Assembly: GCA_965207225.1 (NCBI GenBank)
Contig: CBDBLV010000004.1
Span: 672,001 to 736,000 of the forward strand
From: Dehalococcoidia bacterium
GTDB lineage: Bacteria > Chloroflexota > Dehalococcoidia > Plut-88900
Direction: 5' to 3'
Length of the DNA: 64,000 nucleotides
The position numbers were made by a program, and so were the translations under genes. This document shows positions 694-44,939 of the stretch, in pieces. Within the stretch, counting starts at the first letter, position 1, and each line of letters opens with the position of its first letter. The notes under the pieces were generated by a model, which saw only the letters and a program-made list of their open reading frames with translations, was not told where the DNA came from and did no database searches.

Positions 694-729
694 CGCTGAT
701 CACCTTCTTGCCAATCCGGCCGGGCCGGA

Positions 730-9731: not shown

Positions 9732-9914
9732 GTCGTCGAACCTCCTGTGTCGCCCGACTTATGCCGCGACGCCTGCGGGCGCTGGATCAGTAGTATTTCT
9801 AGCTCATGTCAATATATGTCGCAAGCGGCCAGTGTATATCATCCGCCAATCTGGGGTTCGTTGTCAATGGGGTCCGGGTTGGATTGGGGACGGAAAGGGA
9901 GGGCGGCGGCGCTG

Positions 9915-9972
9915 TGGTGGGCCTAAATTGACGTTAGGCAGAACCATCTTTGAGCTTTGGATGGGGTTGTGA
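9915..9972 (+). mobile_element. att-like left junction of element A with stored LSR C-terminal tail GGPKLTLGRTIFELWMGL*
   Basis: TGGTGGGCCTA identical to 37009-37019; following arm 16/20 identical to 37020-37039. Confidence 0.8.
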
Positions 9973-10206
9973 CCGCTCGTGAGTGCTATGGATGCGATGC
10001 GTTGAGGAGGGAGGACATCGGTGCACATTGGTTTTTTGGATCACAGGGAAGAGTCTAACCGACTGATTCCGATACTGGGCACGAACTTTGGTCTATGCGA
10101 TGGGGGATCATCGGTCCGACAATCACAAAGCCCAGTTTGGCACTCAGAGACTGAGCATAGGCTTGAAGACAATATTGTTTAGATAAGTGGGAGAGAAGCG
10201 GACGAC

Positions 10207-10668
10207 TCAAGATGAGAGTTCAAATTGATCCCGTCGCCACTGCCACCATGTGAGGAAAGCGGTGACAGCGGCAAACAGGACGCCAGTCGCAATGATCGGG
10301 AGCATAAACATTAGCCAGTTATCGTTGTCTGCTCGAACAACATACCAACCCTGCGAGCGGGCGAGCACAAGCACTACCAAGCCGCCCACCGACCCTAAGA
10401 CACCGAGCCAAAGTCCTAAGATCAGACAACTGCGCACACTCGCTTTGTGAGCCACCAGCCCGGTCAGCCCTCCGGCGAAGATCGTCATCAAAGGAGGAGG
10501 CCCCAAGTACAGCAACGCTGCCAAGATGACATCCCAGATGCTAATGTCAAGATCAATTATCGGCAAGTTTCCTCCTCCTATACATTCGGAGCAGGTGCTT
10601 AATTGGAAACCGTTAGCCCTCTTACGGATCATCCATGTTATCGGAACGGATCGCAAGCCGTAGTACAA
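10207..10668 (-). CDS. Hypothetical membrane protein (start uncertain)
   Basis: Several hydrophobic segments; no recognisable motif. Confidence 0.45.
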   Translation of the reverse strand: MYYGLRSVPITWMIRKRANGFQLSTCSECIGGGNLPIIDLDISIWDVILAALLYLGPPPLMTIFAGGLTGLVAHKASVRSCLILGLWLGVLGSVGGLVVLVLARSQGWYVVRADNDNWLMFMLPIIATGVLFAAVTAFLTWWQWRRDQFELSS

Positions 10669-10804
10669 AGAGTCCTTAGTTCGAGTTGTAACCGCCGACG
10701 GTACTCGAATGGTATGTGGAACCCGCTGGGATAGGCTCCAGGGTCATTCTTTTCAGTCTTGTAGGTGCTGAATCACAGCACCTACAAGCCCCGACAGAAT
10801 GTGA

Positions 10805-10833
10805 TTGACATACATAACCGTATGGGTTATAGT
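10805..10833 (+). promoter_or_regulatory. Sigma70 promoter with operator-like inverted repeat; leaderless TA transcript
   Basis: TTGACA(10805)-17 bp-TATAGT(10828); ATAACC/GGTTAT inverted repeat within; ATG at 10840. Confidence 0.75.
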
Positions 10834-10839
10834 CGTGCA

Positions 10840-11184
10840 ATGTATCCGGTATTCTTCCACCAGCGGCCCAACGGTGCCATTCCCTATGAGGAGTACGTGC
10901 GGAACGTCTATCGGGCGGGGCAAAAGACCGAGGCGGCGAAAATCAGGGCATTCGTTGAACGCCTTGAGCAGGAAGGTTCGCAGCGTCTCGTTGGGAGGCG
11001 ATGGGCAGAAAAGATGAACGACGTATGGCAGCTTCGCGCTGGCCAGCACCGGATATTCTACTTCTGGGACTCAGAGGCCGAGCGGTACGTCATTCTAAAC
11101 GGCTTTCGAAAGAGGTCGCGTCGGACTCCACGCCCAGAGTTGGAGAGAGCAGAGAGTCTACGGGCTGAGTATCTGGGAAGATGA
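10840..11184 (+). CDS. RelE/HigB-like (Gp49-like) toxin
   Basis: 'VWQLRAGQHRIFYF...YVILNGFRKRSRRTP.PELERA'; directly upstream of an HTH gene. Confidence 0.8.
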   Translation: MYPVFFHQRPNGAIPYEEYVRNVYRAGQKTEAAKIRAFVERLEQEGSQRLVGRRWAEKMNDVWQLRAGQHRIFYFWDSEAERYVILNGFRKRSRRTPRPELERAESLRAEYLGR

Positions 11185-11194
11185 GGAGAAGATC

Positions 11195-11608
11195 ATGAGA
11201 CGGCATGAGGTTGAGGATAGCCACGCCGAGTGGCTAGAGGACATTGAGTATCGGCAGGAGTTTGGTTCGGAGACCGCCAAGCTTGAGGTCGCGGCAGCAC
11301 TTGCAGACGCACGGGAGGCCGCCGGGATGACTCAATCGGTGCTGGCGGATCGAGCAAGAGTATCCCAGGCATACATCGCAAAGCTGGAGAGGGGTGACGC
11401 AAATCCCACTATTGGCCATATCGGACGACTGTTGGCCTGCATGGGATTGAAGCCTTCCGTCACCGTCGCTCCCATGGAGCCAGCCGCTTCCTCCGAATCT
11501 GTTGATGCAGGGAGCCAGGGAGACTCCAAGTTTGGGGCAGTCTACTCCGACGACCCCCTAGCTGAAGTCGCCGGTTCTTCCGTCGAGCAACCGTCGCCAG
11601 CGGTGTGA
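11195..11608 (+). CDS. XRE HTH antitoxin
   Basis: 'AREAAGMTQSVLADRARVSQAYIAKLERGDANPT'. Confidence 0.85.
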   Translation: MRRHEVEDSHAEWLEDIEYRQEFGSETAKLEVAAALADAREAAGMTQSVLADRARVSQAYIAKLERGDANPTIGHIGRLLACMGLKPSVTVAPMEPAASSESVDAGSQGDSKFGAVYSDDPLAEVAGSSVEQPSPAV

Positions 11609-11692
11609 AATCCCGACGGGGGATGAGCAAGGGAGACTTGGAGTTGGTGATCCCGAGCCGCCCACCTTTCTGGGTTTGAGGAGAAAAGGACA

Positions 11693-13066
11693 CTGAAGAT
11701 AACAGTAATTGGGCTAGGCCGTGTCGGAACGGTTGTCGCCACAGGGCTGGCGACGGCGGGCCATAACGTGCTGGGCGTAGACATCGACCATGATCGGGTG
11801 ACCACCCTTCGTCAGGGCAGGCCTCCATTCTACGAGCCGGAGCTGGCCGAACGGATAACCTTAGCCTCACGGGACAGCGCACTCCGGTTCCTGCACAGGG
11901 ATGAAGTGAATGAGGGCTTGGGGGAGATCGCCGTCATAACCGTCGGCACTCCTCCAGGGCAGGAATCCGCTCCCGACCTACGGCAGGTCCGGGACGCCAT
12001 GTCCTGGGTCAGGTCCATGAGCCCCCGGGGCTTGGTCATCGTCATGAAAAGCACGGTGCCTCCCAGTACAGGATTGAACCTGGTGAAGGAGGAACTGTTG
12101 GGGACAAGCATCCGCTACGTGTCCAACCCAGAATTCCTCCGGGAGGGCCAGGCAATACATGACTGGGATTCTCCCGACCGCATTGTCATCGGAGTCGCTC
12201 CGAATGACGTACGGTCCACCGAGGTCGTGAGACGGATGCACGCCGGTATCGATCCTCCGTTTCTGGTCACCGATGTCACCAGTGCGGAGATGGTCAAGTA
12301 CGCCAACAATGCCTTCCTGGCCACTCGGATTTCCTTCATCAACGAGATTGCAGCCCTGTGCGACTCGTTCGGAGCCTCCATTGACGCCGTGGCCGAAGGC
12401 TTGGCGATGGATTCTAGGACCGGGAGCAAAATCCACGCCGGGGTAGGCTATGGCGGGTCATGCCTACCAAGGGACGTTCGGGCGTTGGACCTGTTGTCTT
12501 CCACTGGAGGGGTGAAAGCGGAGTTGCTCCGGGCGGTGACCAGCGTGAATGATCAGCAGAGGCTACTGCCTTTTCGTGCCCTGCAGAAGCGGTTCGACGG
12601 TCATATCGCCGGACTTAGGATCGGCGTCTTGGGACTGGCCTTCAAACCGGGCACCGAAGATGTCCGGGATGCGCCAGCACTGGAACTGATACGGTCCCTC
12701 GTCGCCGAGGACGCATCGGTAACAGTCTTTGACCCCCACGCCGGTGGACCTGCCAAAGGGCAACTTCCGCCCTCAGCGCGGCTGGTTGATGGGGCGGAGG
12801 AAGCCGCAGATGGTACACAAGCGCTGTGCCTGGTTACCGAGTGGGAGGAAATCGTGGAGGCTGATTGGCAGGCTGTGGCTCGTGGAATGGTTCCACCGCG
12901 TTTTATCTTCGACGGAAGGAACGTCCTAGACCCCCGCCAGATGCGCAGTCTGGGGTTTGAGTACGCAGGAGTGGGGAGAAACGGCGTCAGCACGGGGGAT
13001 CTCGCCGTTGGCACTGGCCAGTCCAAGAGCGACGGCGCAGGCGTCGGAGGCCAGGATGACTGCTGA
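11693..13066 (+). CDS. ugd: UDP-glucose/GDP-mannose dehydrogenase family (probable CTG start)
   Basis: Rossmann 'KITVIGLGRVG' upstream of the track start; motifs KSTVP, NPEFLREG, GYGGSCLPRD, GLAFKPG, DGRN. Confidence 0.9.
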   Translation: MKITVIGLGRVGTVVATGLATAGHNVLGVDIDHDRVTTLRQGRPPFYEPELAERITLASRDSALRFLHRDEVNEGLGEIAVITVGTPPGQESAPDLRQVRDAMSWVRSMSPRGLVIVMKSTVPPSTGLNLVKEELLGTSIRYVSNPEFLREGQAIHDWDSPDRIVIGVAPNDVRSTEVVRRMHAGIDPPFLVTDVTSAEMVKYANNAFLATRISFINEIAALCDSFGASIDAVAEGLAMDSRTGSKIHAGVGYGGSCLPRDVRALDLLSSTGGVKAELLRAVTSVNDQQRLLPFRALQKRFDGHIAGLRIGVLGLAFKPGTEDVRDAPALELIRSLVAEDASVTVFDPHAGGPAKGQLPPSARLVDGAEEAADGTQALCLVTEWEEIVEADWQAVARGMVPPRFIFDGRNVLDPRQMRSLGFEYAGVGRNGVSTGDLAVGTGQSKSDGAGVGGQDDC

Positions 13067-13997
13067 AGGGCGCGTCCTAATCACCGGTGTGGCCGGATTC
13101 GGCGGCTCCCGCCTGGCCGGAGCCTTACTGGAGCTCGGCTACAGTGTGACCGGCCTGGACATTGTGGCCCCTGGGCACGCTGACCTACTGCGTCGAGAGC
13201 TGTCCAATCCAAGGTTTCACTATCTCTGGAAGGGTATCCAGGACATCCAGGCTAAGGACATCGAGGGCCATTCGGTGGTGGTGCACCTTGCGGCCCAGCC
13301 GGACGCCCCACTCGCTTTCGAGTCGCCCCGGTACACGGTCATTCAGAACATCGAGGGCACTGTCGCCCTGCTGGAAGCGGTGCGGCAGGCAGACTGCGTA
13401 TCGAAGCTGATGTTTGCGGGGTCCGGCAACGAGATAGGGCGAGCCTTGTACCTGCCAATCGACGAAGACCATCCGTTGACTCCTCACAATCCATACGGGT
13501 TCTCGAAGGCAGCGGCCGAGATGGCATTGGGGGCATGGCGCCTCGCCTATGAAATCCCGTCAATGGTCATGGGCACAGGCGTCGTGATCGGCCCCAACAT
13601 GCGCAGAGAGGTATTCGTATTCAAGTGGCTGTGGACCGCGCTGCATGGCAAGCCCATAGTGGTCGAGGGCGGTAAGCAGACTCGCGATGTGGCATTCATC
13701 GATGACGTAGTTAGGGCTTGGACACTCGCAATTCAGGCTCCCGTTGAAGAGGTCGTGGGGCAGAAGTTCCTCGTAGGCTCTGGTCAGGAACACTCTATCG
13801 ACGACCTCGCAAGATTCTGCCGGGATAGCGCAGGGAATGACGTCCCAATCGAGTACGTGGGTTACCGTCCTGGAGAAGAAGGACACAGAGAGGCGTTCAG
13901 CGTGGAGAAGGCCCAGAGGGTGCTAGGCTACACTCCCCAGGTCTCACCCAGAGAAGCTATCGGACTAACCGCCGAGTGGGTGCGAACGCTGCTCTAG
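13056..13997 (+). CDS. NAD-dependent epimerase/dehydratase (extended SDR)
   Basis: 'VLITGVAGFGG', 'VVHLAA', YGFSK (YxxxK), 'QTRD'. Confidence 0.9.
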   Translation: MTAEGRVLITGVAGFGGSRLAGALLELGYSVTGLDIVAPGHADLLRRELSNPRFHYLWKGIQDIQAKDIEGHSVVVHLAAQPDAPLAFESPRYTVIQNIEGTVALLEAVRQADCVSKLMFAGSGNEIGRALYLPIDEDHPLTPHNPYGFSKAAAEMALGAWRLAYEIPSMVMGTGVVIGPNMRREVFVFKWLWTALHGKPIVVEGGKQTRDVAFIDDVVRAWTLAIQAPVEEVVGQKFLVGSGQEHSIDDLARFCRDSAGNDVPIEYVGYRPGEEGHREAFSVEKAQRVLGYTPQVSPREAIGLTAEWVRTLL

Positions 13998-14636
13998 CCC
14001 TTTCCAAATGAAGTGGAGTCGTTCCCCGCATCGCCATAGCAGCAGCCCATCCAGATAGTCCGGCCAACCGATCTCGTCTACCGGCAACCTGTAAAGGTGT
14101 GCGACTAGAACTGCCAATATGGCGTCGTGGGTCACGTAGATGTTCAGGCGTCCACAAGCCTGAAGGTCGGTGGTCGTTAGCCGCAGTAGCAGGTCGATAC
14201 CCTCAGCAGTTGGCCTCATGCCGACGGGAGGATTGGCACGGGTGAGTTGGCGCCTCACTATCTCCAATATGCCGATTTCCAGAAAGAGCGCTCCGCTAAC
14301 TTCCGAATCCACGACGAAGGGACCGGGGTCTCCTAGCCGCCAATCTGGGACAATCTCTTCGGGCAACGCACCACCACGCAAGATCGCCTGCGCCGTCGAT
14401 TTACATCTGGGCACGGGGCTGGTGATGACCCTTGTACAGTGCCTTATGTGGGACAGCGCAGCTCCAAGTCTTTCCGCCGAGGCGACTCCATAGGCGGTCA
14501 GGGGCACGTCCACTCCGAATGTCCCTGGAGGAATGTCCTCGCGCTCTGCGTGTCTCAGAACGAGTGCGGCGTCAGCTTCAGCCGGTATGCTCCCAAGCTG
14601 TTCTTTGATCCACGACGCTCCGTCAGTGTCGGTCAT
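13965..14636 (-). CDS. Histidine phosphatase superfamily protein
   Basis: 'LRHAER', 'TSPVPRCKSTA', 'VTHD'. Confidence 0.85.
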   Translation of the reverse strand: MTDTDGASWIKEQLGSIPAEADAALVLRHAEREDIPPGTFGVDVPLTAYGVASAERLGAALSHIRHCTRVITSPVPRCKSTAQAILRGGALPEEIVPDWRLGDPGPFVVDSEVSGALFLEIGILEIVRRQLTRANPPVGMRPTAEGIDLLLRLTTTDLQACGRLNIYVTHDAILAVLVAHLYRLPVDEIGWPDYLDGLLLWRCGERLHFIWKGLEQRSHPLGG

Positions 14637-16324
14637 GACGCTCTGGCGCGGATGATGGAACTTACGGCCACTGTCTCGATCATGTCGAGCAGGTCGAAGC
14701 CCGCCTCACGCAGGATGTTCCTGAACTGCTCCTCCGTGCGTTCAGCCCCTTGCGTCATCACGAGCATGTTCAGGTCCAATAGACCGCCCTCGCCAGTCTC
14801 TTCGCCCAGCACCATCTCGATCACATAGAGCGTGCCGTCTTTTGGCATTGCTTCGCGGGCGCGCTTCAGAATTCGCAGCGCGTTATGGTCGGGCCAGTCG
14901 TGGAGCACCCTCGCCAGAATCACGGCATCCGACGTAACCGGCCATTTCTCAAAGAGATCTCCTCCGACGAATCGGCACCGCTCTGCAAGGTCTGTGGGCG
15001 GTCTGGCGACCCTAACCACCTCCGGCCTGTCCATTACTATTGAACCCAGTCCTGGGCAGGAACGCAGCAACGCGAATGCCAACTCGCCGGTGCCGCCCCC
15101 AGCATCCAGAATGCTGTCGTGGGCACCGAATTCCACCGAGCGGGCAAGGCCCGGGTAGTCGTGTCTTGCGTAGGTCGACATGGCCGAATGGTAGGCTTGT
15201 AGATCGGTGGGCCTGTCCTGAATCCAGTCGAAGAAGTTCTTGCCTTGCATTCTCTCGAAGGCGGACTCTCCGGTCCGAAGTGACCGGGCAACCCCGGACC
15301 AAGCTTCGTAAGATTCTTTGCCCCAGTGTCGAGACGCATCCGCAAGTGAGAAGGGGTGACTTCGCACGAGGAGCGCCCCGCGCTCGGTTGGATGGTAGAT
15401 GCCCTCCGCATCCCTCAGCACGAGTCCCAACTCTGTGAGCGCCCTCATCAATCTAACCCCAACCGACGTGTGCAACTGGGCCTTTCGCTCAATCTGTTCC
15501 GCCGATGCGGGCAGGGACTCGAACACGCCCAGTTCCACCGCAGCATGAATCGTCTGGGTCCGCCAGAGACCGACCATATCGCCTGACAGCCCTTCAAGAT
15601 GTGATTGCGATGGCCTCCTGAGCTCCAGTACAAGCAGGCCCGACTCGTTGATTACCGACAGGGAGCCGTCGAAACCCTCCACGCGGGCCTGCCCGTTGTA
15701 GAACGGCTCCACGCTCTTGAAACGCTCTCTGTACAAGGGCTTCCCCATCATGTCCACATGGTGCCAGCCTTCTGAGTCCCGGGCGCGCGCGTACCGCTTG
15801 TGGAACACGTCCAGGTCTTGGAACCATTGACCATGGAGTGGAACGCCAGAGGCGTCTATGTGGGTGTGTCTACCGTCCTCACGTTGAACAACCGCGTAGC
15901 CGTCCTTGAAGTCTCCGGCGTACCGGTAGCGTTCCCCGTATGCAACTGAGCCATCGCCTGTAATGTGGAGGTAGTCACCGCCAACCAACCGGACGGCGCA
16001 TCTGTCCTCCTGGAAGTTGCCGCACCAGGTGTAGCGCTTCTCGTACAAGGGATTCCCTTCCGGGAGGATATGGACCCAACCATCCTCCGAATGGACCGCT
16101 GCCCGGCCCTCGTAGAATCCAAAGGTTCTGACATAGCGCGGTTCGTAGGCTGCCAGCCCGTCGGGGGTGATGTGGTACGCGCCTGAGCCGTCAAGAACGG
16201 GAGCCAATCCTGGTTCATGGAACTTCAGCACCTCGCGGAATCTCGACGAATAGGCCGACCCTCCCCGATAGACGTGATGGGATGCGTCTTCGGATATCCC
16301 GAAACTGCGCCAGCGATCTTTCAT
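14633..16324 (-). CDS. WG-repeat / O-methyltransferase fusion
   Basis: N-terminal repeats 'F.EG.A.V....G..HI...G'; C-terminal wHTH plus 'LDAGGGTG','GDLF','RVLHDWPD'. Confidence 0.85.
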   Translation of the reverse strand: MKDRWRSFGISEDASHHVYRGGSAYSSRFREVLKFHEPGLAPVLDGSGAYHITPDGLAAYEPRYVRTFGFYEGRAAVHSEDGWVHILPEGNPLYEKRYTWCGNFQEDRCAVRLVGGDYLHITGDGSVAYGERYRYAGDFKDGYAVVQREDGRHTHIDASGVPLHGQWFQDLDVFHKRYARARDSEGWHHVDMMGKPLYRERFKSVEPFYNGQARVEGFDGSLSVINESGLLVLELRRPSQSHLEGLSGDMVGLWRTQTIHAAVELGVFESLPASAEQIERKAQLHTSVGVRLMRALTELGLVLRDAEGIYHPTERGALLVRSHPFSLADASRHWGKESYEAWSGVARSLRTGESAFERMQGKNFFDWIQDRPTDLQAYHSAMSTYARHDYPGLARSVEFGAHDSILDAGGGTGELAFALLRSCPGLGSIVMDRPEVVRVARPPTDLAERCRFVGGDLFEKWPVTSDAVILARVLHDWPDHNALRILKRAREAMPKDGTLYVIEMVLGEETGEGGLLDLNMLVMTQGAERTEEQFRNILREAGFDLLDMIETVAVSSIIRARAS

Positions 16325-17400
16325 GACTCAGCCGGCCGTCGCATGTTGCACCCCTGGCACAGCGCGTTCCGCATGTAGTTGACTTCAAGGTTTCTGTACG
16401 CCGCACTCTCCCAGATGTCGTACAGGCTCGTGTCGTTTACGTTGCCGAAGTAGCCGAGCGTCCGGCGCAGCACGTCCGGGGCGCAGCAGGGATTGAATCG
16501 GCCATCGGAGGCAACCCACGCCTCCTGTCCGAGAAACGGGCATTCACCATCTGGGGTGATGTCGCCCTCGCCGTTCTTGTCCAGCCTGAAGATATTCTCC
16601 AACAGCACACGGTCGCCGTTCGGCAGCCTGTGACGCTCAGCAACCTCGTAGGCCGAATCCACAACGGCGTTCCAATGGGCGATGGCGTCTTGGCTTCTAC
16701 GCATCGACTGGAAGCGCATCTGCTTGAAGTGGACCCAAAGATGATGACCCTTCACCCTGTCCACACCAAGATCAGCAGCCAGCTTCACTATGCCGGGCAG
16801 CTCTGAGACGTTGATTTCCATGAATGTCAGCTGGAACGTCACGCGGCAGTGATTGCCGCCTCGTGCTGCGTGGGCGTCCCTGACCCCAATGAACGTACGA
16901 ACGTTTTCCACAACGGTCTCCCAGTTCGATCCCAGCATGACGTTCTCGTGCGTCGCTTTCGTTGCGCCGTTCCACGACACCTTCATGTCGGACGTGACGG
17001 GTACGATCCGCTCGGCCCACGCTCTAGCTCCGCGCTTGGGAAAGGTGCCGTTCGTCGTCAGGTTGAGCTTGACTCCGTACTCCGCGCAGAGATCCAGGAT
17101 CTCGTCGAAGTGCCGGTACAGCAGCGGTTCGCCCATGGTGGAGGGTATGATTTCGCGCAGCCCCGTGCCCCTGGACTCCTCCATCACCCTGCGGATCAGA
17201 TCGAAGTCCATTCGACGCTTGGGGCGTCCTGCCTCCCGTCTGTCGGTCTGAGTCGTGCTGTAGGGGGAATGGTCCTCGCACATGATGCAGTGGAGGTTGC
17301 AGTCGTCGGGATTAGTGTCGAAGGTGATCCGCCAGGGACCGGACCGATCCTGTGCAGTCCCGGCAAAACTTGCGTTCTTTTCGACGGTGGCTTCAGTCAT
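16321..17400 (-). CDS. Radical SAM protein with SPASM/twitch-like C-terminus
   Basis: CNLHCIMC, 'GEPLL', C-terminal 'CPF..DGRFNPCC..GNV..CQGC'. Confidence 0.92.
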   Translation of the reverse strand: MTEATVEKNASFAGTAQDRSGPWRITFDTNPDDCNLHCIMCEDHSPYSTTQTDRREAGRPKRRMDFDLIRRVMEESRGTGLREIIPSTMGEPLLYRHFDEILDLCAEYGVKLNLTTNGTFPKRGARAWAERIVPVTSDMKVSWNGATKATHENVMLGSNWETVVENVRTFIGVRDAHAARGGNHCRVTFQLTFMEINVSELPGIVKLAADLGVDRVKGHHLWVHFKQMRFQSMRRSQDAIAHWNAVVDSAYEVAERHRLPNGDRVLLENIFRLDKNGEGDITPDGECPFLGQEAWVASDGRFNPCCAPDVLRRTLGYFGNVNDTSLYDIWESAAYRNLEVNYMRNALCQGCNMRRPAES

Positions 17401-17404
17401 TGTC

Positions 17405-18706
17405 CTAACCTCTGGATATCAAGTGGTCGTAGATTCTCTCAACAGCAAGGGAGTGCTCTAGCATGCCTCGAACGTTACCGTCGTCCGACTGCACGTAACC
17501 CCTTCTGCCCAACCGATCCGCGAGCCGTGTGTCGTCAGCCAATCGCTGCATTTGCTGCGCCAGGGAGTCGGCGTCGCGATGAGCGAACAGCAGGCCGTTC
17601 CGTTCGTGATGGACATACTCGGCCATCCCACCGTAGTCGGCCGTAATCACGGGAACCCTGGCCTGCAACGCCTCGTGAATGACGAGGGGGGAGTTTTCCG
17701 CCCAAATCGAGGGCACTACAACTGCATCGCAGCGGTTGAACACGTCGGCAACGATGTCTTGGTTCCTGTACTCGCCCATCCACTCAATTCGATTGCCCGC
17801 GTAGTCGGGCAGGCTTTGCGCCAATGCCTTCAGTCCCTCGGTCTCGACGCCTCGGTGGCGTCCCCAGATTCGAAGCCTGGAACTGCCGGACACGCTGCCG
17901 AATGACTCTATGAGGTGGTTCACTCCCTTCGCCGGTATGTGTGTCCCGATGTAGCCGAAGGTAAACGGCTCGCCCGGTATCCTGTTTCGTCCCTCCATGC
18001 GCCGCCGGTGGAAGCCGTAGTCGAGGTAGGTGAGCTTCTTATCGGGGATTCCGAAGTCGTCTCTGAATCGCCTCAGAAGATACCTTGACGGTGCAATGAA
18101 CATGTCCACGGCATCGCACACCTTGCGGACATGAGCCATGCGCCTGCCCACCCATCCCGTCCAGTAGGCAGCATCCTCCTCGTGCTCCTCCTCACTGCCT
18201 GAGAAGTAGCGCACGTAACAGCGGACGGCGCACTTCCTGTCGTCCTGCCCGTCGCAGACGGCCCAGACGTCCATAGGGTCCCGAGGATACATCTGGATGA
18301 ACTGACCCCTCGGACACATCAGCCAGTAGTCGTGGAGCGTGAATACGATGGGGATCCGTCGCTCTCTGGCCTCGAACACAAACGAGGTGGACAGATGGTT
18401 CAGGTGTCCCACGTGGACTACTTCCGGGCGAATCTCATCCAGCAGACTTGCGAAAGTGGAGTCTACTGCCGGGTGGCGGTATCCGTCCCGCGCTCTTGCC
18501 ATGTTGACGACGTGAAGGGCGATTCGGGGGTCGGACGGATCGGTCTCGCGCTGCATGGCGTATTCGGGAAGGAATGCATTCTCCTGCCTCGTGAAGACGT
18601 GCACTTCGTGACGCTCTGCAAGTGCTTGAGCCAAGCCCTGGCTGTACACCTCGGACCCGGCATTGTACCGCATCGGATAACCATGAATGACTTGGAGGAC
18701 CTTCAC
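17405..18706 (-). CDS. GT4 family glycosyltransferase
   Basis: 'KVLQVIHGYP..AGSEVY','TLHDYWLMCPRGQ','PSIWAENSPLVIHEA'. Confidence 0.92.
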   Translation of the reverse strand: MKVLQVIHGYPMRYNAGSEVYSQGLAQALAERHEVHVFTRQENAFLPEYAMQRETDPSDPRIALHVVNMARARDGYRHPAVDSTFASLLDEIRPEVVHVGHLNHLSTSFVFEARERRIPIVFTLHDYWLMCPRGQFIQMYPRDPMDVWAVCDGQDDRKCAVRCYVRYFSGSEEEHEEDAAYWTGWVGRRMAHVRKVCDAVDMFIAPSRYLLRRFRDDFGIPDKKLTYLDYGFHRRRMEGRNRIPGEPFTFGYIGTHIPAKGVNHLIESFGSVSGSSRLRIWGRHRGVETEGLKALAQSLPDYAGNRIEWMGEYRNQDIVADVFNRCDAVVVPSIWAENSPLVIHEALQARVPVITADYGGMAEYVHHERNGLLFAHRDADSLAQQMQRLADDTRLADRLGRRGYVQSDDGNVRGMLEHSLAVERIYDHLISRG

Positions 18707-18731
18707 CGAAACACCCTACCTTTGCCGACAT

Positions 18732-19238
18732 CTACTGGAGAAGCCTCTCCGGTTCTACTAGCAGCTCAGAGACGCGTCTCCCCAAGGCTCCTGCGATGGC
18801 TTCGAGGGTACGGAACCGGGGCGACTGCTCTCCCTTTTCCACCCGCACCAGCGTCACCCGCCCGATGTCCGCAGCACGAGCGAGGGCCTCCTGCGTCATG
18901 CCGGCAGACTCCCTCATATCCCGGATGCGTGCTCCAAGAGTCTGCCTGCCCTGAATCGCTATCGCCTCGATTGCCGGTCGATAGAATGCGTCGCAGTAGT
19001 GGCGAGCGAAATCCCAGGGAATCTCCACCTGCTCTCCGCTGTCGGTCTCCACCATCATCTCGTAAGGGTTCGGCAATTCGAGGCTGGACACGGCCCCGCG
19101 TTCCTTGATCTCAGGAACGTCTGCGTAGGGTATGAGGCCCTTGGACCCATCAGCGAAGTTGAGCTCGATGCCGTCCTCCAGCAGGCTGGCGGCCGTCATC
19201 ATCCGACTGGCGTTTCTGACCAGGACTGCTTCCATCAT
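18732..19238 (-). CDS. Antitoxin-like protein: DUF2442-like N-terminus plus XRE HTH
   Basis: C-terminal 'RESAGMTQEALARAADIGRVTLVRVEKGEQSP'; follows a DUF4160-like gene. Confidence 0.7.
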   Translation of the reverse strand: MMEAVLVRNASRMMTAASLLEDGIELNFADGSKGLIPYADVPEIKERGAVSSLELPNPYEMMVETDSGEQVEIPWDFARHYCDAFYRPAIEAIAIQGRQTLGARIRDMRESAGMTQEALARAADIGRVTLVRVEKGEQSPRFRTLEAIAGALGRRVSELLVEPERLLQ

Positions 19239-19241
19239 CGC

Positions 19242-19478
19242 CTATCCTCCATGAATGGCGTCCCACGTTCTTCTGATCTCCTCGGCATATCTGGCATATG
19301 CCCTCATGATGTTCCTGAAGTTACCAGGGGGAGGAGTGTCCATGCAGGCACCCCCGTTGAGCTCTATGCGGCACACATCTTCGTTGCCGACCCAGACGTG
19401 GGGCGGCTCAAAGCTGTTCTCCCTAGTGTTGACGACGAAGCGGAACTGGCCTTCTATCGCCACAGTTGGCATGGGCAA
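19242..19478 (-). CDS. DUF4160-like small putative toxin
   Basis: 'MPTVAIEGQFRFVVNTRE..EPPHVWV...I...WDAIHG'. Confidence 0.75.
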   Translation of the reverse strand: MPMPTVAIEGQFRFVVNTRENSFEPPHVWVGNEDVCRIELNGGACMDTPPPGNFRNIMRAYARYAEEIRRTWDAIHGG

Positions 19479-19596
19479 TCCTTCCGCTCATCGATGCATT
19501 GTCGGGAGCCTTTGTCGCACTGGAATAGTATCATACAACGACACAACGGGGCAATACATACTGCGTTGGGCTGAGTCGGAGGAGAGGTCCGATTCT

Positions 19597-20446
19597 TCAC
19601 CGACTAACTCCACCGCAGACCCCAACGTTAGCACTCGCCTCAGCCACATGGCCTTGTCCAGTTCCCTTTGAGCCGCCTGCAAAGCCTGCCGCCGCCACCT
19701 TAGGTGGTCCTCCCTGCGCGAAGCGTCCAGCGGCGCTCAGCTTCCCCTCTGCTGTATCATCCTGGTGGTCCTCCCTGCGCGAAGCGTCCAACGGTTCGGT
19801 CTCCGGCGGCAGCGTCAGGCCGTAGTCGCCGAGCATGGCTATCTCCAACTCCCACCGGCGCCCCGAAGGCGTGCTCCTCGTCGGGCTGTTCCTCCGACGT
19901 GACCACTCCGGCGTCGGGTAGTCCGTGCTCCCGTCTGGGAGGCCGCCACTCCCTGCGCCGACCATCGCCATCACCGACCGGATCAGGCTTGCTCGGCTCC
20001 CGTTTCTCTTCCTCCGCCCCGTCCTCCGATCCTCCAACATTGCGTTGCAACTCCGTCAGCTGCTTCGCCTGGGCTTCGACGGTCTCCGCCATGGCGCCAT
20101 GCGCTCCCTCCAATGCCGTCACCCGTTCTTCCAGCGCCGCTATCTTCTCCGCAATGTCACCGGCCTCATCGTCCTGCTCATCCCCGCCGTCACCGTGCTT
20201 GTCCCTGAACTCCGCCAACGCCTTCCGCATCCGCCGCGATACGTGACGAGACTCGTGGCAGGTCACCATAGTGCGGTAGTTCACCCCCAGGGCCTCCGCA
20301 GCAGCCACCTTGCTCCGGTCATTCATCATAGCGTCCAGCAGGTCCAGTAGGGGATCGTCCGTTAGGGGGGCATCCTATAGAGGGATGCTCTTGCCGTCGC
20401 TGGCACCCTTCGACCCGGCCCCGCTGGGTTCCTCATGGTTAACCAT
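19597..20446 (-). pseudogene. Disrupted paralog of the ICE backbone gene at 48416-49261
   Basis: RBS plus ATG 20446, in-frame TAG at 20375-20377, later frameshifts; shared motifs 'SRRMRKAL/SRRMRESL', 'ELEIAMLGDYGLTLPPETEPL/EMELALLEEHGMTLPPEKQPL'. Confidence 0.75.
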
Positions 20447-21516
20447 TGGCTCCTCCTTAACTCAGAAACTACAACAGACTACAATACAATCAGTACAATA
20501 GACTTAGCACTGACCCGCAGTAAAACTGCTCGATGGATTCCCTTCGCTTCGCCCTGGTTCCCCTTCATTCAGCTACGAATGTCACCCAGATTGTATTCTA
20601 CAATGTGCTCCTAATCTCCTTACAGCCCTCCCAGGGCGAAAGCCGTCCCTGAGCGATTGTAGTCTGACAGGTCAGCCCATCGGCACTCGGCCAGCCCGAA
20701 ACCGTTGGCGGGCCGATAGCGGCCACGATCCCTCGCTCAATTCCGTCCGTTCCGCACCCTCATGCAAGTTGCTATTTCCTGCAACTGGCCCCTGACACAA
20801 AGTGTTCTGTGATTTGGCCCGGTAGGGAGACGTGCCTCTCCATCTCAGCTTTGAAACAGCGCGAATCTGCAACTTGCAGCGAGTCTGTTTCTGCGTACTG
20901 CCCCCCTGACTTCGAGGAAGCCCCTCGCAGGGTCGTCACCGATAGGAGGCTGACGCATCAGTGGGCCAGTAACCCCTTTGCATTGACGTAGTCCCCTCCG
21001 AGGGATACCGGCTCGCTTTCCCAGGCCCAAACACTGGTCTAGGGACGCCGGTAGTACGGCATCGACGGCGGAAAGGCCAGTCTGCAATCCCGCCGGAGAC
21101 CGAGACCAAGGAGCGGGATGAAAGGGGTCGATAGAAGGAAGCCATCAAAGTGGGTTGCCACGCCCTCGAATGGAGCGACGGCGGCCCACACCGTCAAGCG
21201 GCGAGAGACGCTGCGCATCCTGACCAGCATGTCCATTCGCCCTTCCTGCGGCGGAAGGCGTCGCGGGCTTCGCAAGCCCTCGGGAGGCGGTGCATGTTCG
21301 CACCCGCATACGGGCAGGTGCATTTCCGCACCGCCCCGTGGGAGGTTCCGGATCGCATGTCCATTGTTCACACTCCTTTGCAGGCGCTGCGGTCCAACGG
21401 TCCGCAGCAGGCCGCAGGGAGGTAAACGAGTTGGCGCTGACATCGAAGCTCCAGCCGCCTGGGCGGCTCATCCCGCCGGGAACCGCACCGGTCCCGTCCT
21501 GCGCCGTCCCGACGTC

Positions 21517-21897
21517 ACGCACCCCCGCCTCAAGCGGGATTTTGGGCGACTCTTGTCATCGGACCGTCGATTTTCTCCGGTGCGGACACCCCCGCCTCAA
21601 GCCCTCTTTTGTCATTGGAGACCGAACTCCGGCCTTTCAACAGATTGCTCGCCGGTTACGTCCCATAGGGGCCGATCTACCCCTGATTCAGCTACGAAAT
21701 CACGACTTCGACCACTGCGTCACCAAACTCTATTTCCTGTACACCCCCGCCACTGCAAGAAACGCCTCCCCGATTGGAGACCCTCCGTGGCGCCACCATG
21801 CGTGAGGTCTTTTTCAGCGTCCCGGTCGTTCACACTCTCTGGCGAGGGCTGCGGTCCGGTGACCCGCAGCAAACCGCAGGAGGTGAACATCTTGGCG
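21517..21897 (+). repeat. Conserved 381-bp non-coding backbone block, copy 1
   Basis: Colinear with 49345-49725 (CACCCCC.C.TCAAGC x2, TTTTTGTCATTGGAGACCG, AGCTACGAAATCACGACTT, ATTTCCTGTACACCCCC, AGGTGAACATCTTGGCG). Confidence 0.9.
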
Positions 21898-22195
21898 CTG
21901 AGTTCGACAGGGAGAGCGACAACCCCAGTGACGCCGCGGCCTCCCCGGCCTCAGCCCGGAGGGCGGGGAGGCTCATTGCGGCTCACCAGCACTGGCTACA
22001 TCGGCGTAGTGGCTTCCAGGGGACTACACCGATGTAGTCCCTTCCAGGGGATAACGCTCGCCATTCCGGTCGCCCACACTGACGTAAAGACCGGGCGGTA
22101 GCCCGCCCGTCGGTCCGTCTGTGCCCGGCGGCCACCCAGGACACCTGTAGACGAGAGGCCAGCGGCCCGACGAACCGCCGCTGCGACTGTGACCC

Positions 22196-22435
22196 ATGAG
22201 AGACAGCAATAGAGAAGATACAAGGAACAGGCAAAGGAAGAGGAGCGGAGGAGACGCTCCCGATCCCTCCATCGACAGGCCGATGGAGCCCTACACCGCC
22301 GAGCAGCGAGCTCAGCTCCAACGCGGGCTGCGCATCCTGGCCCGGATGATCGTCCGCGCCCATCTGCGGGGTGAGATACCCAAGGCAGCGTCGCCTTCCA
22401 CGAAGCCGCCGTCAGAGAAGGTGTCCGGCGGATGA
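22196..22435 (+). CDS. Small conserved ICE protein (paralog of 61085-61303)
   Basis: 'NREDTRNRQ...DRPME.YT..Q......GLRILA...VRAH' shared. Confidence 0.7.
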   Translation: MRDSNREDTRNRQRKRSGGDAPDPSIDRPMEPYTAEQRAQLQRGLRILARMIVRAHLRGEIPKAASPSTKPPSEKVSGG

Positions 22436-22621
22436 ACCGCCATCAAGCAAGCCCCGCATCCTCAATGCCGCGTCATCCTGGCGGCGGCTCAGGGCATCGT
22501 GATCACGGCCCCTGCTTTACCACAACTCCGACCCCATAACAACGGCTTGCAAGGCATTACATGCGAGCAATCTCCCGTTCAAGATGGGACGTTGGGACAT
22601 TGTTGACAAGCGGAGCACCAA

Positions 22622-24490
22622 TTGGCAGCCACGGATTCACGAGCAGCAGAACTGAACGGCGCAGCGCAGGCCGGAGCGGACCTCGACGAGGCGGTCCGGG
22701 ACTACGTGCGCACCTACGCCGTGCTGCATGGGAAGCCGAAGGCGGCCGAGGCTCTCGGCGTCTCCCGCCACACCCTGTGGCGCTTCCTCGACCGGGGCCA
22801 CGCGGGACGCGCCATACCCCGCGCGGTGCTGGAGCAAGTGGGCGACAGACCAGAGGCGCTGGAGGACGCCGAGGAGCGGCTGATACTCCAGGCGCAAACC
22901 AGGCGGCGGCTGAAGGACGGCGGCCCGTCGACCGGTTCCAAGCGCCTGTCCGAGGCCCTGGAGGACGCCCTCCGGCTGGTCTGCGCAACGCCCCTGGCCA
23001 CCGTGGACGAGCTGTCCCGCTTCGGACGTGTTCCCGCCTCCACTATGAGAGAACGCATTGACAAGCTCGCCAGGCGGGGCCTGGTGGACTCCGTGTCGCA
23101 CCAACTGAGCGTTCTCGGCTCCCGCCCCCAACGACGCTACTTCCCCACGAAGCAGGGCATCGTCGCCGGAGGAAGGATCGAGCACGGCACGGACTACTTC
23201 CTCAGCGAGTACCCGGTGTCCAGACAGTGGTTCCGGCTGCTGGCCGAGCGCATGGACGCCGTGGCCGTCCTCTACCGCCTCGCCACCATGATCGCCGACG
23301 CAGACCCGCACCATAAGCCCGTGCGCGTGGACCACTACCGCAGCGGCCCCTACGACATGCTGATCACTCTGTCGGGTGGCCGCTCCATCGGCATCATCCG
23401 CCAGGGTCAGACCCTACCCACCTCCAACCTGCGCTACCGCCTCAGGAGCGTCGAGCATCTCCCCAGCCGGGAGAAACCTTTCGCCACCCTGGTGCTGACA
23501 CACGCCGACCAGGCCACCCGCAGGGCGATACGCTCATTGGGCGACCCCTCGGAACACCGTAGGACCTTCGCGGCGACGGAGGGGGAGCTTCTGGCCGTTG
23601 CCCACACCGGCGCCGTCTGGCAGCAGTGCGGAGACGGACGGGACAATGACCCGCCCGTGCCTATCGACCCCGGCGCGGCTCTTAGGGGCATCCTGGCGTG
23701 GATGGATCGGCTGCTGGACTCGTCCCATTCGTCCTTCCGCGACAACCCGAGGCCCGATCTCGAAGACCTCTACTCTTCCCGTGTGAAGGCCGCCATGCCG
23801 GAGCCTGCCCAGCAGATCACGTCATCCCCATCGGCGCAACTCACTCGCGCCGGGAAGGACGCCCTGGACCTGCTGTCCGCCTGGCCCCTGTGCACCCGTG
23901 AGCAGCTCGCGGGGCTGATGGGCGGCGTCACCCTGCGTCGGGTCAACCAGGTGCTCCGCTCACTCCGTGAGCACGGCCTCGTGCGGGAGGACGGCTCCCT
24001 GCTCGTTCTCACCGACGAGGGGCTGACACACCTGGCTCGCCGGGACCGGGCCGCCGTCGGCCTCACCCTCGACCGCTGGAGCCCAGAACTCACCCTCAGG
24101 AAGCCCTCCGTCTACGTCGGGACAGCCCTGCGCGCCCTGGCCACCCAGCTGCGCCACCACGCCGGCGTCGTCGGCTTCGCGGCCTCCCTCTCAGCCGAGG
24201 TAGCTAAGTCCCCGGACTACGACCTGTTCGACCTGCTGCCCACCCACCGTTCCAGCATCGGCTACCGCTACGACCAGACCACCTACGCCATTCACCCCGA
24301 CGCATCCTTCACCCTGGAGTACAAAGGCGATTGGCGTCCCTTCCTGCTGGAGTTCGAGCGGAGGGCCACCACGCCGAAGCGCATCCCCAAACGCCTGAGG
24401 TCCTACCGACGTTATTTCACCAGCGGCTGGGCGAAACGAGATCATGAGGGACACCTGCCCAACGTGCTCTTCATCTTCGAGTCCCCCGAC
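22622..24490 (+). pseudogene. Replication-relaxation (Replic_Relax/MOBC-like) protein truncated by IS21
   Basis: Similar to 58644-60305 ('ERMDA...YR','LARRDR','PDA...F.LE.ERRA..P'); reading frame meets the IS end after 'FESPD'. Confidence 0.75.
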
Positions 24491-24585
24491 TGTCGTTACC
24501 CAAGATCTTTGAGCCAGGTTACCCACGAACATTGAGCCACCCTGAACGCCGATGATACGGATTATGACAGGATGCTATCGGCGGT

Positions 24586-25380
24586 TCAATCACCTCCCTT
24601 CTTGCCGAGGATTTTGGCCACCTTTCCCAGTAGGGCGCGGTGAGGAGAGAGCCTCTCCCGGTAGCTGGTGCCCTCGATGACGATCTGGTAGCTGGTGTTG
24701 GCCAGACGGTCCAGGGCGCTGTTGCCCAGGATGGGATCGTTGAAGAGGCTGAGCCACTCTTCGATGGCGCGGTTGGAGGTGATGACGAAGCTGGAGGCCC
24801 GGTGCTTGCCGACGATGAGTTGGTAGAGGTCCGATGACTGTTGTGCGTTAAGACGGTGCAGGCCCAGGTCGTCGAGGATGAGCAGGTCGGGGGAGAGGAA
24901 GGAGCGGAAGGCTTTGTCCACCGAGTTGTCCACCCTGGCTTGGGACATGGCTTTGAAGAAGTCGTATGCGTGGATGAAGCGGACGGAGTATCCGGCTCTG
25001 ACGGCGGCGTAGCCGAGGGCCTGGGCCAGGAAGCTCTTGCCGACGCCCGCCGGTCCCATGAGCAGGACGTGCTCGTGCCTGGGGATGAAGTCCAGGGAGA
25101 AGGCGGCGTCAAGGAGGCGGCGGTCCAGGGTGATTTCGGACGTCCAGTCGAAGTCCTCCAGGCGGCAGGTCTCCTCGAAGCCGGCCCGGTTCAGGCGGGT
25201 CTCGATGCGCCGGTTCTCCCTGCGGCTGACCTCGTCGGCCAGGATGATCTCCAGGAAGGCGGCATAGTCCAACTGGTCCCTTCGGGCCAGGGCGATGCGC
25301 TCGGGCAGGGTGTCCAGCATGCCGCTGAGCTTGAGGGTCTTGAGCAGCGGGGCCAGATCGACGTTGCGGTTGCGGGTCAT
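24586..25380 (-). CDS. istB: IS21 helper ATPase
   Basis: GPAGVGKS, LLILDDLG, ITSNR, ALDRL. Confidence 0.95.
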   Translation of the reverse strand: MTRNRNVDLAPLLKTLKLSGMLDTLPERIALARRDQLDYAAFLEIILADEVSRRENRRIETRLNRAGFEETCRLEDFDWTSEITLDRRLLDAAFSLDFIPRHEHVLLMGPAGVGKSFLAQALGYAAVRAGYSVRFIHAYDFFKAMSQARVDNSVDKAFRSFLSPDLLILDDLGLHRLNAQQSSDLYQLIVGKHRASSFVITSNRAIEEWLSLFNDPILGNSALDRLANTSYQIVIEGTSYRERLSPHRALLGKVAKILGKKGGD

Positions 25381-26957: not shown

Positions 26958-27080
26958 CGCGGCACCTCCTTATCAAGTGCTGCAATGGTCTAAGCTGGGG
27001 CGCTCAGGGTGGCTCAAAGACCCTGGTTATCTGGCTCAATGTTAGTGGGTATTGTGGCTCAATGTTCCTGGGTATTGACA

Positions 27081-27134
27081 GACGAACGGCATCCGGCTCA
27101 GGGCGTCGAGCAACTGGTGGTCGGAGAGGGCCAT
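27081..27134 (-). pseudogene. 18-codon N-terminal stub of another relaxase-like gene, cut by IS21
   Basis: MALSDHQLLDALSRMPFV versus 'LEAHLLRTLADMPYL' at the start of 58644. Confidence 0.5.
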
Positions 27135-39999: not shown

Positions 40000-40005
40000 T
40001 ATCGG

Positions 40006-44808: not shown

Positions 44809-44939
44809 AAGCAACCGGCCGGCGTCCCCACGGGGGCCATGGGCTGAAGGCGGCAGTTCGGCTGCCGACCATTGGACGCCAACGCGCCGGTGCCGATGCG
44901 GACTTGGTGAAACGCAAAGAGAGCGGGATACATGCCGGT

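Follow-up and report, generated by a model that had tools for sequence, protein, structure and literature searches.

A mobile six-enzyme cassette of Dehalococcoidia with a core resembling that of the Undecim Cluster of phage WO

Our analyses of a 64,000-nt stretch of a Dehalococcoidia genome (contig CBDBLV010000004.1, positions 672,001 to 736,000; hereafter the window, numbered from its first nucleotide) revealed a self-contained, horizontally mobile biosynthetic set of six enzymes. This unit, here termed the cassette, consists of a nucleoside diphosphate (NDP)-sugar 6-dehydrogenase (Ugd) and a short-chain dehydrogenase/reductase (SDR) on one strand and, converging on them from the other, a family 4 glycosyltransferase (GT4), a radical S-adenosylmethionine (SAM) protein, a WG-repeat/O-methyltransferase (WG/OMT) fusion and a histidine (His) phosphatase. 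By sequence comparison, its core is the same module as UC3/UC4 (WD0613/WD0614) of the Undecim Cluster of phage WO, which revises the original prediction that no named pathway has this gene set. The cassette is a Chloroflexota variant of this widespread module in which the genes are split, a phosphatase is added and the OMT is intact, and its carrier resembles an integrative and conjugative element (ICE). We estimate a probability of roughly 55% that the cassette uses a nucleotide sugar and a phosphorylated acceptor to make a radical-SAM-modified, O-methylated small-molecule glycoside.

The conserved cassette and its mobile carrier

Related loci were collected by scanning one genome per species for close relatives of the radical SAM protein. 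This gave 59 genome loci, 56 of them in Dehalococcoidia, Chloroflexota or SAR202 metagenome-assembled genomes and three in Corallococcus; with a second set of 84 metagenome and IMG/VR loci, 143 loci were compared in total. All counts refer to eligible loci, i.e., those with enough sequence to judge the feature in question. The invariant core of the cassette comprises the GT4, the radical SAM protein and the WG domain. Specifically, a GT4 gene lay upstream of the radical SAM gene in 56/57 genome loci and 66/67 metagenome and IMG/VR loci (122/124 when pooled), and a WG domain was encoded downstream of it in 58/59 and 74/74, respectively (132/133 when pooled). For the other components the corresponding counts were 53/58 and 24/50 (OMT), 50/56 and 19/40 (His phosphatase), 45/54 and 11/26 (SDR), and 21/54 and 5/26 (adjacent Ugd). 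The conserved gene order is GT4, radical SAM, WG/OMT and His phosphatase, followed by the convergent SDR gene and often an NDP-sugar dehydrogenase gene, and this layout recurs in 56 Chloroflexota loci. A mobile pathway containing a glycosyltransferase, a radical SAM protein, an O-methyltransferase and a phosphatase had been predicted from the window alone; it is supported as mobile and co-inherited, and the four-gene order that was to be sought in other neighborhoods indeed co-occurs in these loci; the Ugd and SDR genes had been overlooked as members of the unit. When the open reading frames (ORFs) of the 59 genome loci were clustered, only six families were widely recurrent, and these were the six cassette enzymes. 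The flanking genes varied between loci and were not conserved.

In the window, the ORF coordinates confirm six minus-strand genes in close succession; two neighboring pairs overlap by 4 bp, and the other intergenic distances are 4, 25 and 3 bp. The radical SAM and GT4 ORFs are separate, with 4 bp between them; the WG/OMT gene comes after the radical SAM gene with a 4-bp overlap, and the 3′ end of the convergent SDR gene overlaps the phosphatase gene by 33 nt. The first two of the six genes encode a DUF4160-type protein and a helix-turn-helix (HTH) protein, a putative toxin–antitoxin (TA) pair that had been counted as part of the unit. This pair is a passenger outside the conserved cassette, because its homologs occur near the cassette in only 2/59 loci, namely L040, where they are 68% and 76% identical and the DUF4160-type one lies 4.3 kb from the GT4 gene, and, partially, L011. 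A Gp49-like/HTH_3 pair on the other side of the cassette was also not conserved beside it in other loci.

The data support the cassette as cargo in a 10-kb slot of a multi-copy ICE-like element, because the backbone is multi-copy, the cargo is unique and the window contains mobility genes; the earlier description of the operon as ICE cargo therefore holds. In DNA searches, five or more further copies of the backbone segments 706-9900, 19764-24490 and 40001-60000 were located elsewhere in the genome, at 89-100% identity. In the search covering the genus, the left backbone (706-9906) matched at 88-98% elsewhere in the window's own genome (G000) and the right backbone (19764-24490) at ∼91%, and the 9.9-19.76 kb segment between them had no other match in G000. 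At least two other copies of the element carry ∼1.2 kb between the same backbone ends instead of the cargo. Proteins encoded in the window include relaxase-like proteins (two Replic_Relax), a TrwB-like protein, a large serine recombinase and IS21 insertion sequence proteins. Indeed, this 4.0-Mb genome contains many copies of one large mobile element. The distribution of the cassette is patchy; it was found in 1/8 other genomes of the genus and in 5/301 sampled genomes of the class (E ≤ 1e-60).

Table 1. Coordinates of the cassette genes, neighboring genes and cargo segment in the window
Feature	Coordinates	Strand	Evidence or remark
NDP-sugar 6-dehydrogenase (Ugd-like)	11693..13066	+	three UDPG_MGDP_dh domains; convergent to operon
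SDR, extended, nucleotide-sugar epimerase/dehydratase	13056..13997	+	Pfam Epimerase, 130 bits
His phosphatase (branch 1), last gene of operon	13965..14636	-	Pfam His_Phos_1, 45.8 bits
WG-repeat/O-methyltransferase fusion	14633..16324	-	Pfam WG_beta_rep + Dimerisation + Methyltransf_2
Radical SAM, abridged SPASM/twitch-like C-terminal domain	16321..17400	-	Pfam Radical_SAM + SPASM
GT4 (GT-B, retaining-type), first biosynthetic gene of operon	17405..18706	-	Glycos_transf_1, Glyco_transf_4
168-aa protein with C-terminal HTH_3; antitoxin-/regulator-like	18732..19238	-	HTH_3, 52.4 bits
78-aa ORF with weak DUF4160 resemblance; putative TA partner	19242..19478	-	PF13711, 19.3 bits
Gp49-like (HigB/RelE-type) toxin gene, passenger TA pair	10765..11184	+	PF05973, 41.7 bits
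HTH_3 antitoxin-like gene, partner of Gp49-like gene	11195..11608	+	HTH_3, 47 bits
Cargo segment, unique in genome, between repeated backbone segments	9900..19763	.	approximate boundaries

The Ugd protein scores 315 bits with TIGR03026, above the cut-off. There is no ATG, GTG or TTG ahead of its Rossmann motif (window 11693-11767), and its L005 ortholog has a TTG start at the position of the window's CTG at 11693; the most likely start is therefore this CTG, behind the GGAGAAAAGG stretch. The SDR gene starts with an ATG preceded by GGAGG. The RHAE and THD motifs of the phosphatase and the EX7E motif of the GT4 are intact. In the WG/OMT protein, residues 1-240 form the WG-repeat β-propeller-like domain, which is followed by a class I OMT with a dimerisation domain (Pfam Methyltransf_2, 131 bits). 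No curated NCBIfam family takes any of the four operon enzymes. The 168-aa HTH_3 protein scores 47 bits with TIGR03070, under the cut-off, and the DUF4160 match of the 78-aa ORF is weak, the cut-off being 23 bits. A promoter and terminator scan found sites no more numerous than in shuffled sequence.

Several further features of the element and of other cassette copies were noted. The repeated backbone contains two giant genes, at 730-5973 (with fn3 domains) and 5970-9731, and the block with the TrwB-like and Replic_Relax genes is likewise repeated across the genome. An IS21-type element occupies window 24491-27082 (IstA-like 25377-26957, IstB 24586-25380) and recurs with 99% identity at five or more other sites in the genome. 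Exactly at the junction of cargo end and backbone, window 19703-19794 holds a direct repeat of 31 nt, whose copies are 97% identical and 61 nt apart; the repeat search left the cargo boundaries undefined. Degraded copies of the cassette were found in L014 (radical SAM gene in two frames), L062 (truncated radical SAM match) and L063 (WG/OMT and phosphatase genes interrupted).

Relation to the Undecim Cluster and to fused forms

A HMMER search of 1.84 billion representatives returned 133 proteins at E ≤ 1e-30, many of them long, and by Pfam most of the long proteins are GT4–radical SAM/SPASM fusions. The two enzymes are encoded in a single open frame in 53/66 metagenome loci and in the three Corallococcus loci. 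With one such fusion as query, tblastn searches of annotated collections gave matches of 52-57% identity on three Arsenophonus plasmids, two Rickettsia plasmids and two records of Wolbachia phage WO. Annotation of the WO region starts with a nucleotidyltransferase, an SDR, a "glycosyl transferase/moaA-nifB-pqqE" protein and three hypotheticals (at the positions of WD0614-WD0616), and continues with two L-allo-threonine aldolases, a glycerol-3-phosphate transporter and a uridine diphosphate (UDP)-glucose 6-dehydrogenase. This region is the Undecim Cluster, WD0611-WD0621 (UC1-UC11). On the Rickettsia plasmid, the fusion is followed by a "WG repeat-containing protein", a phytanoyl-CoA dioxygenase (PhyH) and an ABC transporter, and the core gene order is common to the window, WO and the Rickettsia plasmid pREIP. 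The Arsenophonus plasmids (CP132902.1, CP132904.1 and CP132908.1; ∼20 kb, from louse flies) encode a fusion 56-57% identical to a metagenome copy, with no feature annotated underneath the matches.

The likeness to the Undecim Cluster lies in the core. UC3 is a GT4–radical SAM/SPASM fusion, both halves of which are adjacent in the window, and UC4, a WG (KWG) repeat plus an O-methyltransferase-type domain, directly follows UC3. Compared with phage WO (MN180251.1), the window's GT4 is 51% identical over its full length to the N-terminal half of WD0613, its radical SAM protein 56% identical, likewise over full length, to the C-terminal half, and its WG domain 46% identical to that of WD0614. Identities are 24% for the OMT domain over its full length, 36% for Ugd and 23% for the SDR, and the His phosphatase has no WO counterpart. 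Both systems include an SDR and a UDP-glucose 6-dehydrogenase and are carried on mobile elements; other Undecim copies are those of the Rickettsia plasmids pREIS2 and pREIP, Cardinium and Phycorickettsia. There are, however, clear differences. GT4 and radical SAM are split into two genes in the window and fused in UC3, and the window's Methyltransf_2 domain is well preserved, whereas by Pfam the WO and Rickettsia proteins show only WG and Dimerisation. The window adds the His phosphatase, its SDR gene is convergent rather than upstream as in WO, and its carrier is an ICE-like element in Dehalococcoidia, not the eukaryotic association module of phage WO or a WO-like island. The window also lacks the UC1 nucleotidyltransferase, UC5 PhyH, UC6 ABC exporter, UC7/8 aldolases, UC9 MFS protein and UC11. 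Because these seven of the eleven Undecim genes (UC1, UC5-UC9 and UC11) were not found in the 9.9-19.8 kb cargo, the window contains the shared core module and not the Undecim Cluster in the strict sense. By tblastn, PhyH is present in 6/54 related Dehalococcoidia loci; the WG/OMT proteins of L008, L020, L042, L046, L049 and L054 (∼846 aa) have an extra N-terminal PhyH domain and would thus join UC5-like and UC4-like functions in one chain.

According to the sections of the published accounts available to us, the Undecim Cluster is conserved in most WO-bearing Wolbachia and absent from wPip and wRec, is highly expressed, and has been exchanged with Rickettsia, Cardinium and Phycorickettsia (PMC9203015), and peptides were reported for 9/10 of its proteins (PMC4701759). 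The latter account also names Haliangium ochraceum and Desulfovibrio hydrothermalis as carriers of the module; Corallococcus coralloides is another carrier in culture. Its function is assigned in these sections by annotation alone (PMC9203015, PMC4701759), and the sections on the cluster and on WD0612-0615 report no product. The WG/OMT fusion, which had been singled out as unusual, is indeed present; it is conserved, however, and the excerpts show that it had already been noted in print. No paper on the chemistry of this gene combination came up in our literature searches, and the three-part core, the protist mega-fusions described below and the link to viperin were not found in the literature searched. 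Two leads from published sources, each available in part, were discarded: the D483N change in WD0614 is one of many single-nucleotide polymorphisms between wMel variants and uninformative, and the R. buchneri "aminoglycoside (AGAB)" cluster, considered as a Rickettsia copy, is a different gene set with PIG-L and a KanB-like aminotransferase (PMC8770908).

Other fused forms extend the set of joined activities. In Corallococcus, the gene for an 804-aa GT4–radical SAM protein precedes that for a WG-repeat protein that stands alone, and neither an OMT nor a phosphatase is encoded nearby. In Chromera velia, Cvel_1502 (P0137, 2458 aa) comprises WG/OMT, NTP_transferase (weak), a GHMP kinase with GalK signature, GT4 and radical SAM; a second Chromera protein (P0128) has the same domain order, and P0278 comprises NTP_transferase, GHMP kinase, GT4 and radical SAM. 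The Stephanoeca diplocostata protein P0151 combines His_Phos_1 (weak), a carbamoyltransferase, GT4, radical SAM and a WG domain 35% identical to that of the window, and Cyanophora paradoxa P0139 is a GT4–radical SAM protein. These protist and bacterial fusions unite all activities of the window cassette in one pathway. The fusion patterns also place the WG domain with the GT4–radical SAM core rather than with the methyltransferase. In the ESM Atlas, fusion clusters have 50-196 members each, are named only "glycosyltransferase", and come most commonly from Pseudomonadota, Myxococcota and Bacillota. In a quick preliminary tree, the Dehalococcoidia sequences form a single clade nested among bacterial homologs, Wolbachia and Rickettsia are sisters, and the Chromera-type fusions are a separate clade. 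On the IMG/VR contig L153 (445-10878), a GT4–radical SAM fusion and a short WG protein are encoded ∼5 kb from a gene for a terminase large subunit (GpA nuclease); this copy is possibly prophage cargo outside Wolbachia.

Clues to the chemistry of the cassette

In the proposed pathway, a nucleotide-activated sugar, probably of the uronic-acid type, would be produced by Ugd and the SDR and then moved by the GT4 onto a phosphorylated small acceptor. The radical SAM protein, with a single auxiliary cluster like that of BtrN, would take a hydrogen from the new glycoside, leading to oxidation or rearrangement, and the WG propeller would be an obligatory partner that binds substrate or adds a catalytic step. 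The OMT would methylate a hydroxyl, and the His phosphatase would strip the phosphate to leave a free, modified, O-methylated glycoside acting as a small molecule. What was observed is the gene content, conservation, mobility, Undecim homology and fusions; donor, acceptor, radical chemistry and role are our inference.

The radical SAM protein has the CX3CX2C motif at C34, C38 and C41. In its C-terminal domain, C287, C305, C348 and C351 are invariant in the family and C306 is nearly so; with only four invariant C-terminal cysteines, the domain does not have the seven-cysteine SPASM motif for two auxiliary clusters. When the family profile was compared with the PDB, BtrN was the best match (1.9e-16) and PqqE the next (1.4e-15), with viperin and cytosylglucuronate decarboxylase lower in the list; phmmer with the single sequence returned PqqE only (2.3e-4). 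The protein thus combines the BtrN-like features of CX3CX2C, one four-cysteine auxiliary cluster and closest profile similarity, the last by a small margin over PqqE. BtrN, of butirosin biosynthesis, is the solved example of the twitch-type radical SAM carbohydrate dehydrogenases, which oxidize a secondary alcohol of a sugar or cyclitol, and the likeness would extend to the association with a GT4 in a sugar pathway, the GT4 neighbor of BtrN being BtrM. The similarity is remote, however; the cassette has no aminocyclitol genes, and the WG partner has no counterpart in the BtrN system.

The same protein raises the question of a peptide substrate. In a scheme like that of peptides made on the ribosome and modified after translation (RiPPs), the radical SAM protein and the GT4 would have a peptide, or the WG-repeat protein itself, as their substrate, and the fusion of OMT and substrate would parallel borosin-type self-modifying enzymes. 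Such a scheme would fit the Pfam SPASM assignment, the presence of PqqE, SuiB, SkfB and anSME among the top PDB profile matches, and a WG domain that always follows the radical SAM gene and is stand-alone in Corallococcus. We nevertheless regard it as highly improbable. The family has four invariant C-terminal cysteines rather than the seven of a full SPASM domain. No conserved 15-90-aa ORF was found within 700 nt upstream of the GT4 gene in the genome loci, a search that did not cover peptides encoded elsewhere, and the 4-bp gap and overlaps between the operon's enzyme genes leave no room for a precursor peptide gene, in agreement with the original prediction that none is evident. The WG domain shows the degree of conservation of an enzyme or partner, with 58% identity between Chloroflexota and Corallococcus compared to 64% for the radical SAM protein, and is confidently modeled as a β-propeller-like fold, and sugar chemistry is indicated by the sugar-activation enzymes of the protist fusions. 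The three Corallococcus loci L058-L060 share a 62-aa ORF ∼110-300 nt upstream of the fusion; their species are closely related, so this conservation carries little weight.

AlphaFold2 models of the WG/OMT protein have predicted local distance difference test (pLDDT) values of 90.9 and 94.6, the latter for the WG domain. In Foldseek searches, the best matches of the WG domain were BamB and designed propellers, with template modeling (TM) scores of ∼0.5, so that only generic β-propellers were recovered, and the ESM Atlas gave "WG repeat" clusters only. Many His, Asp, Cys, Lys, Glu and Trp residues of the domain are invariant across phyla, which suggests that it holds a binding or catalytic site. 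The OMT domain matched 6c5b best in the PDB (177 bits), then MmcR, CalO6, AlpH and DnrK, and by these matches it is nearest to O-methyltransferases of aromatic natural products and small molecules.

Phosphate and sugar handling recur across the family in different guises. The sugar would be supplied by Ugd and SDR in bacteria and by a GalK-type kinase and a nucleotidyltransferase in protists, and phosphate is handled by non-homologous enzymes: the His phosphatase, the GHMP kinase, a P-loop kinase (L128) or a Y_phosphatase3 protein from an ORF cluster of five loci, two of which (L107 and L114) were scanned. The WO cluster carries a GlpT/UhpT-type organophosphate transporter. Larger relatives add PhyH dioxygenases, pyridoxal phosphate-dependent aldolases, carbamoyltransferases and further radical SAM enzymes, and carry ABC, MFS or MATE exporters.

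Both a small molecule and a surface glycan had been suggested originally. The GT4, Ugd and SDR could serve a surface glycan, an exopolysaccharide (EPS) or a lipopolysaccharide (LPS)-type modification, for example in receptor masking. Polysaccharide loci typically encode a GT4, Ugd and SDR epimerases, and the best NCBIfam matches of the GT4 are EPS and teichuronic-acid transferases, all far under their cut-offs. One flank (L038) has a Polysacc_synt protein, and WD0611-0613 and WD0620 (UC1-3 and UC10) are assigned by annotation to EPS/LPS biosynthesis in the available part of the literature (PMC9203015). Flippase, polymerase, priming transferase and glycan-export genes were, however, not found in the 9.9-19.8 kb cargo, as the original prediction had stated for flippase and polymerase, and the gene families that recur in the 143 loci do not include a flippase, polymerase, chain-length or priming transferase. 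Moreover, the GT4 is fused to a cytosolic radical SAM protein and, in protists, to a sugar kinase and nucleotidyltransferase; the OMT resembles small-molecule OMTs, and the accompanying transporters are of drug/metabolite type. A surface glycan is thus distinctly unlikely. A small molecule fits better because glycan-export genes are missing, relatives have exporters and the protist fusions include a sugar kinase and nucleotidyltransferase.

The small molecule could instead be a physiological metabolite, such as a compatible solute or cofactor-like glycoside made by GT4 action on a phosphorylated acceptor followed by the phosphatase, with no role in conflict. A GT4 and a dedicated phosphatase follow the same logic in sucrose-phosphate, mycothiol and glucosylglycerate synthesis, and the sole PDB sequence match of the GT4 at E ≤ 1e-8 is 6kih (Tll1590), a sucrose-phosphate synthase. 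MshA and BshA are among its weak NCBIfam matches, the Undecim Cluster holds a GlpT/UhpT-type transporter, and carriers are both free-living and symbiotic. Against such a housekeeping product, the cassette is cargo of mobile elements, phage WO and plasmids, its distribution in the genus and class is patchy as given above, viperin lies inside the operon in several loci, and relatives have exporters and tailoring enzymes of secondary metabolism. We consider a physiological metabolite unlikely.

The modified-glycoside pathway that we favor also has points that weigh against it. The margin of BtrN over PqqE is slight, which leaves some probability to peptide chemistry. The uronic-acid donor is a guess, because the SDR's nearest solved relatives (UDP-hexose and UDP-glucuronate 4-epimerases, MoeE5 and 3vps) are about equal at 91-114 bits and Ugd is adjacent in only 21/54 genome loci. 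The locus counts overstate independence, since the Dehalococcoidia loci are mutually related.

Known pathways offer analogies. In pathways of the tunicamycin and mitomycin type, a modified sugar core is assembled by a glycosyltransferase together with a radical SAM enzyme and is methylated or carbamoylated afterwards. The SDR, radical SAM, glycosyltransferase, phosphatase, methyltransferase and carbamoyltransferase classes match those of the tunicamycin and mitomycin pathways, MmcR ranks second among the PDB matches of the OMT domain, and the SDR matches include 3vps. The available part of a published account of mitomycin gene roles gives MitB as ∼33 kDa (PMC8621148), a size from which MitB would not be a GT4. 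The correspondence is at family level only, with no orthology, and the cassette has no 3-amino-5-hydroxybenzoate (AHBA), acyl or deacetylase genes; we treat both pathways as analogies of logic only. A route to the cobalamin lower ligand, with a CobC-like phosphatase and a BzaC-like OMT, was also considered and rejected, as the phosphatase is far under the cut-off and there is no ThiC-like radical SAM protein.

Viperin and a possible role in conflict

That the product plays a role in biological conflict, antiviral or antimicrobial, is a tentative proposal to which we give somewhat less than even odds; an anti-phage role, as had been suggested originally, is plausible from gene context. By tblastn, viperin is encoded in or beside the cassette in 8/54 eligible genome loci, in four arrangements: between WG/OMT and phosphatase (L012), between phosphatase and SDR (L028, L035, L053, L061 and L036), after the SDR (L034), and 3.4 kb upstream (L048). 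L035 and L061 share one genome, and several of the viperin loci are mutually related. Two viperins of related loci that were scanned exceeded the curated NF038283 cut-off, with 286 and 308 bits. L145, from a different lineage, encodes a viperin–thymidylate kinase fusion upstream of SDR, GT4, radical SAM, WG and phosphatase. Chance proximity of viperin and cassette is very unlikely, because viperin is present in only 7/401 sampled genomes of the class. Co-location of defense genes on mobile elements could explain it. In L036 (11614-15063), the viperin gene is split in two by an IS21-type element with IstA/IstB-like ORFs.

The window's radical SAM protein itself is not a prokaryotic viperin (pVip), scoring 21.5 bits with NF038283 against a cut-off of 180. 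The cassette resembles viperin and Ophion, anti-phage systems whose radical SAM protein makes or modifies nucleotides, in that a radical SAM protein is combined with phosphate handling and ribosyl or glycosyl transfer, for which it uses other families; Ophion, as outlined in the accessible part of a recent preprint, is a defense system of a radical SAM protein, a PHP phosphatase and a phosphoribosyltransferase (PRTase). The 131 non-redundant flanking ORFs include families of defense or conflict type, namely DruA, GmrSD, McrBC, a helicase with an MZB domain, enzymes of type ISP and Eco57I-like enzymes, a KAP NTPase, and PIN, Fic and Uma2 proteins, along with transposases. The GT4-conflict family (PF20706) was rejected as a label for the GT4; at 40 bits it scores below generic GT4 families, and its published STAND/TRADD-N effector contexts (eLife) are inapplicable.

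Other observations speak against a conflict role. Many flanks are housekeeping genes, and the defense families were counted without a matched control. No known defense family of PADLOC-DB 2.0.0 matched, the component proteins giving weak generic hits to pVip (24.6 bits) and mad2 (17.9 bits) and the regulator hits to HTH families. The three viperins of the window's own genome sit elsewhere, none beside the cassette or on the window's backbone, and the exporters of larger relatives are as compatible with a secreted antibiotic as with an antiviral product. These three viperins, all above the curated cut-off, are encoded at C4:57071-57895, C5:853963-854790 and C5:1469467-1470294 (L165-L167). Two are paired with an HTH–TPR protein: the L166 viperin gene is followed by an overlapping gene for an 864-aa HTH and TPR protein, and L167 shares the 3.6-kb segment at 89% identity.

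There is an outside chance that the core module makes an antiviral sugar or nucleoside analog, working with or parallel to viperin. The phosphatase would then free an active nucleoside-like glycoside, and in viperin loci the substrate would be a 3′-deoxy-3′,4′-didehydro (ddh)-nucleotide. If so, Undecim chemistry could contribute to Wolbachia protection of insects against viruses, and the Chromera, choanoflagellate and glaucophyte fusions would be a further immune pathway common to bacteria and eukaryotes.

Independently of that possibility, the Undecim core is not special to insect endosymbionts; it is found also on ICE-like elements, plasmids and phages across bacterial phyla, and it has an unexpected genomic link to viperin. 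The comparison offers a biochemical frame that runs from a nucleotide sugar and a phosphorylated acceptor through a radical step to methylation and dephosphorylation, and minimal testable sets in the Corallococcus triad and the six-gene Dehalococcoidia cassette. Elucidation of a single member would provide annotation for hundreds of gene clusters and might be relevant to the effects of Wolbachia on its hosts.

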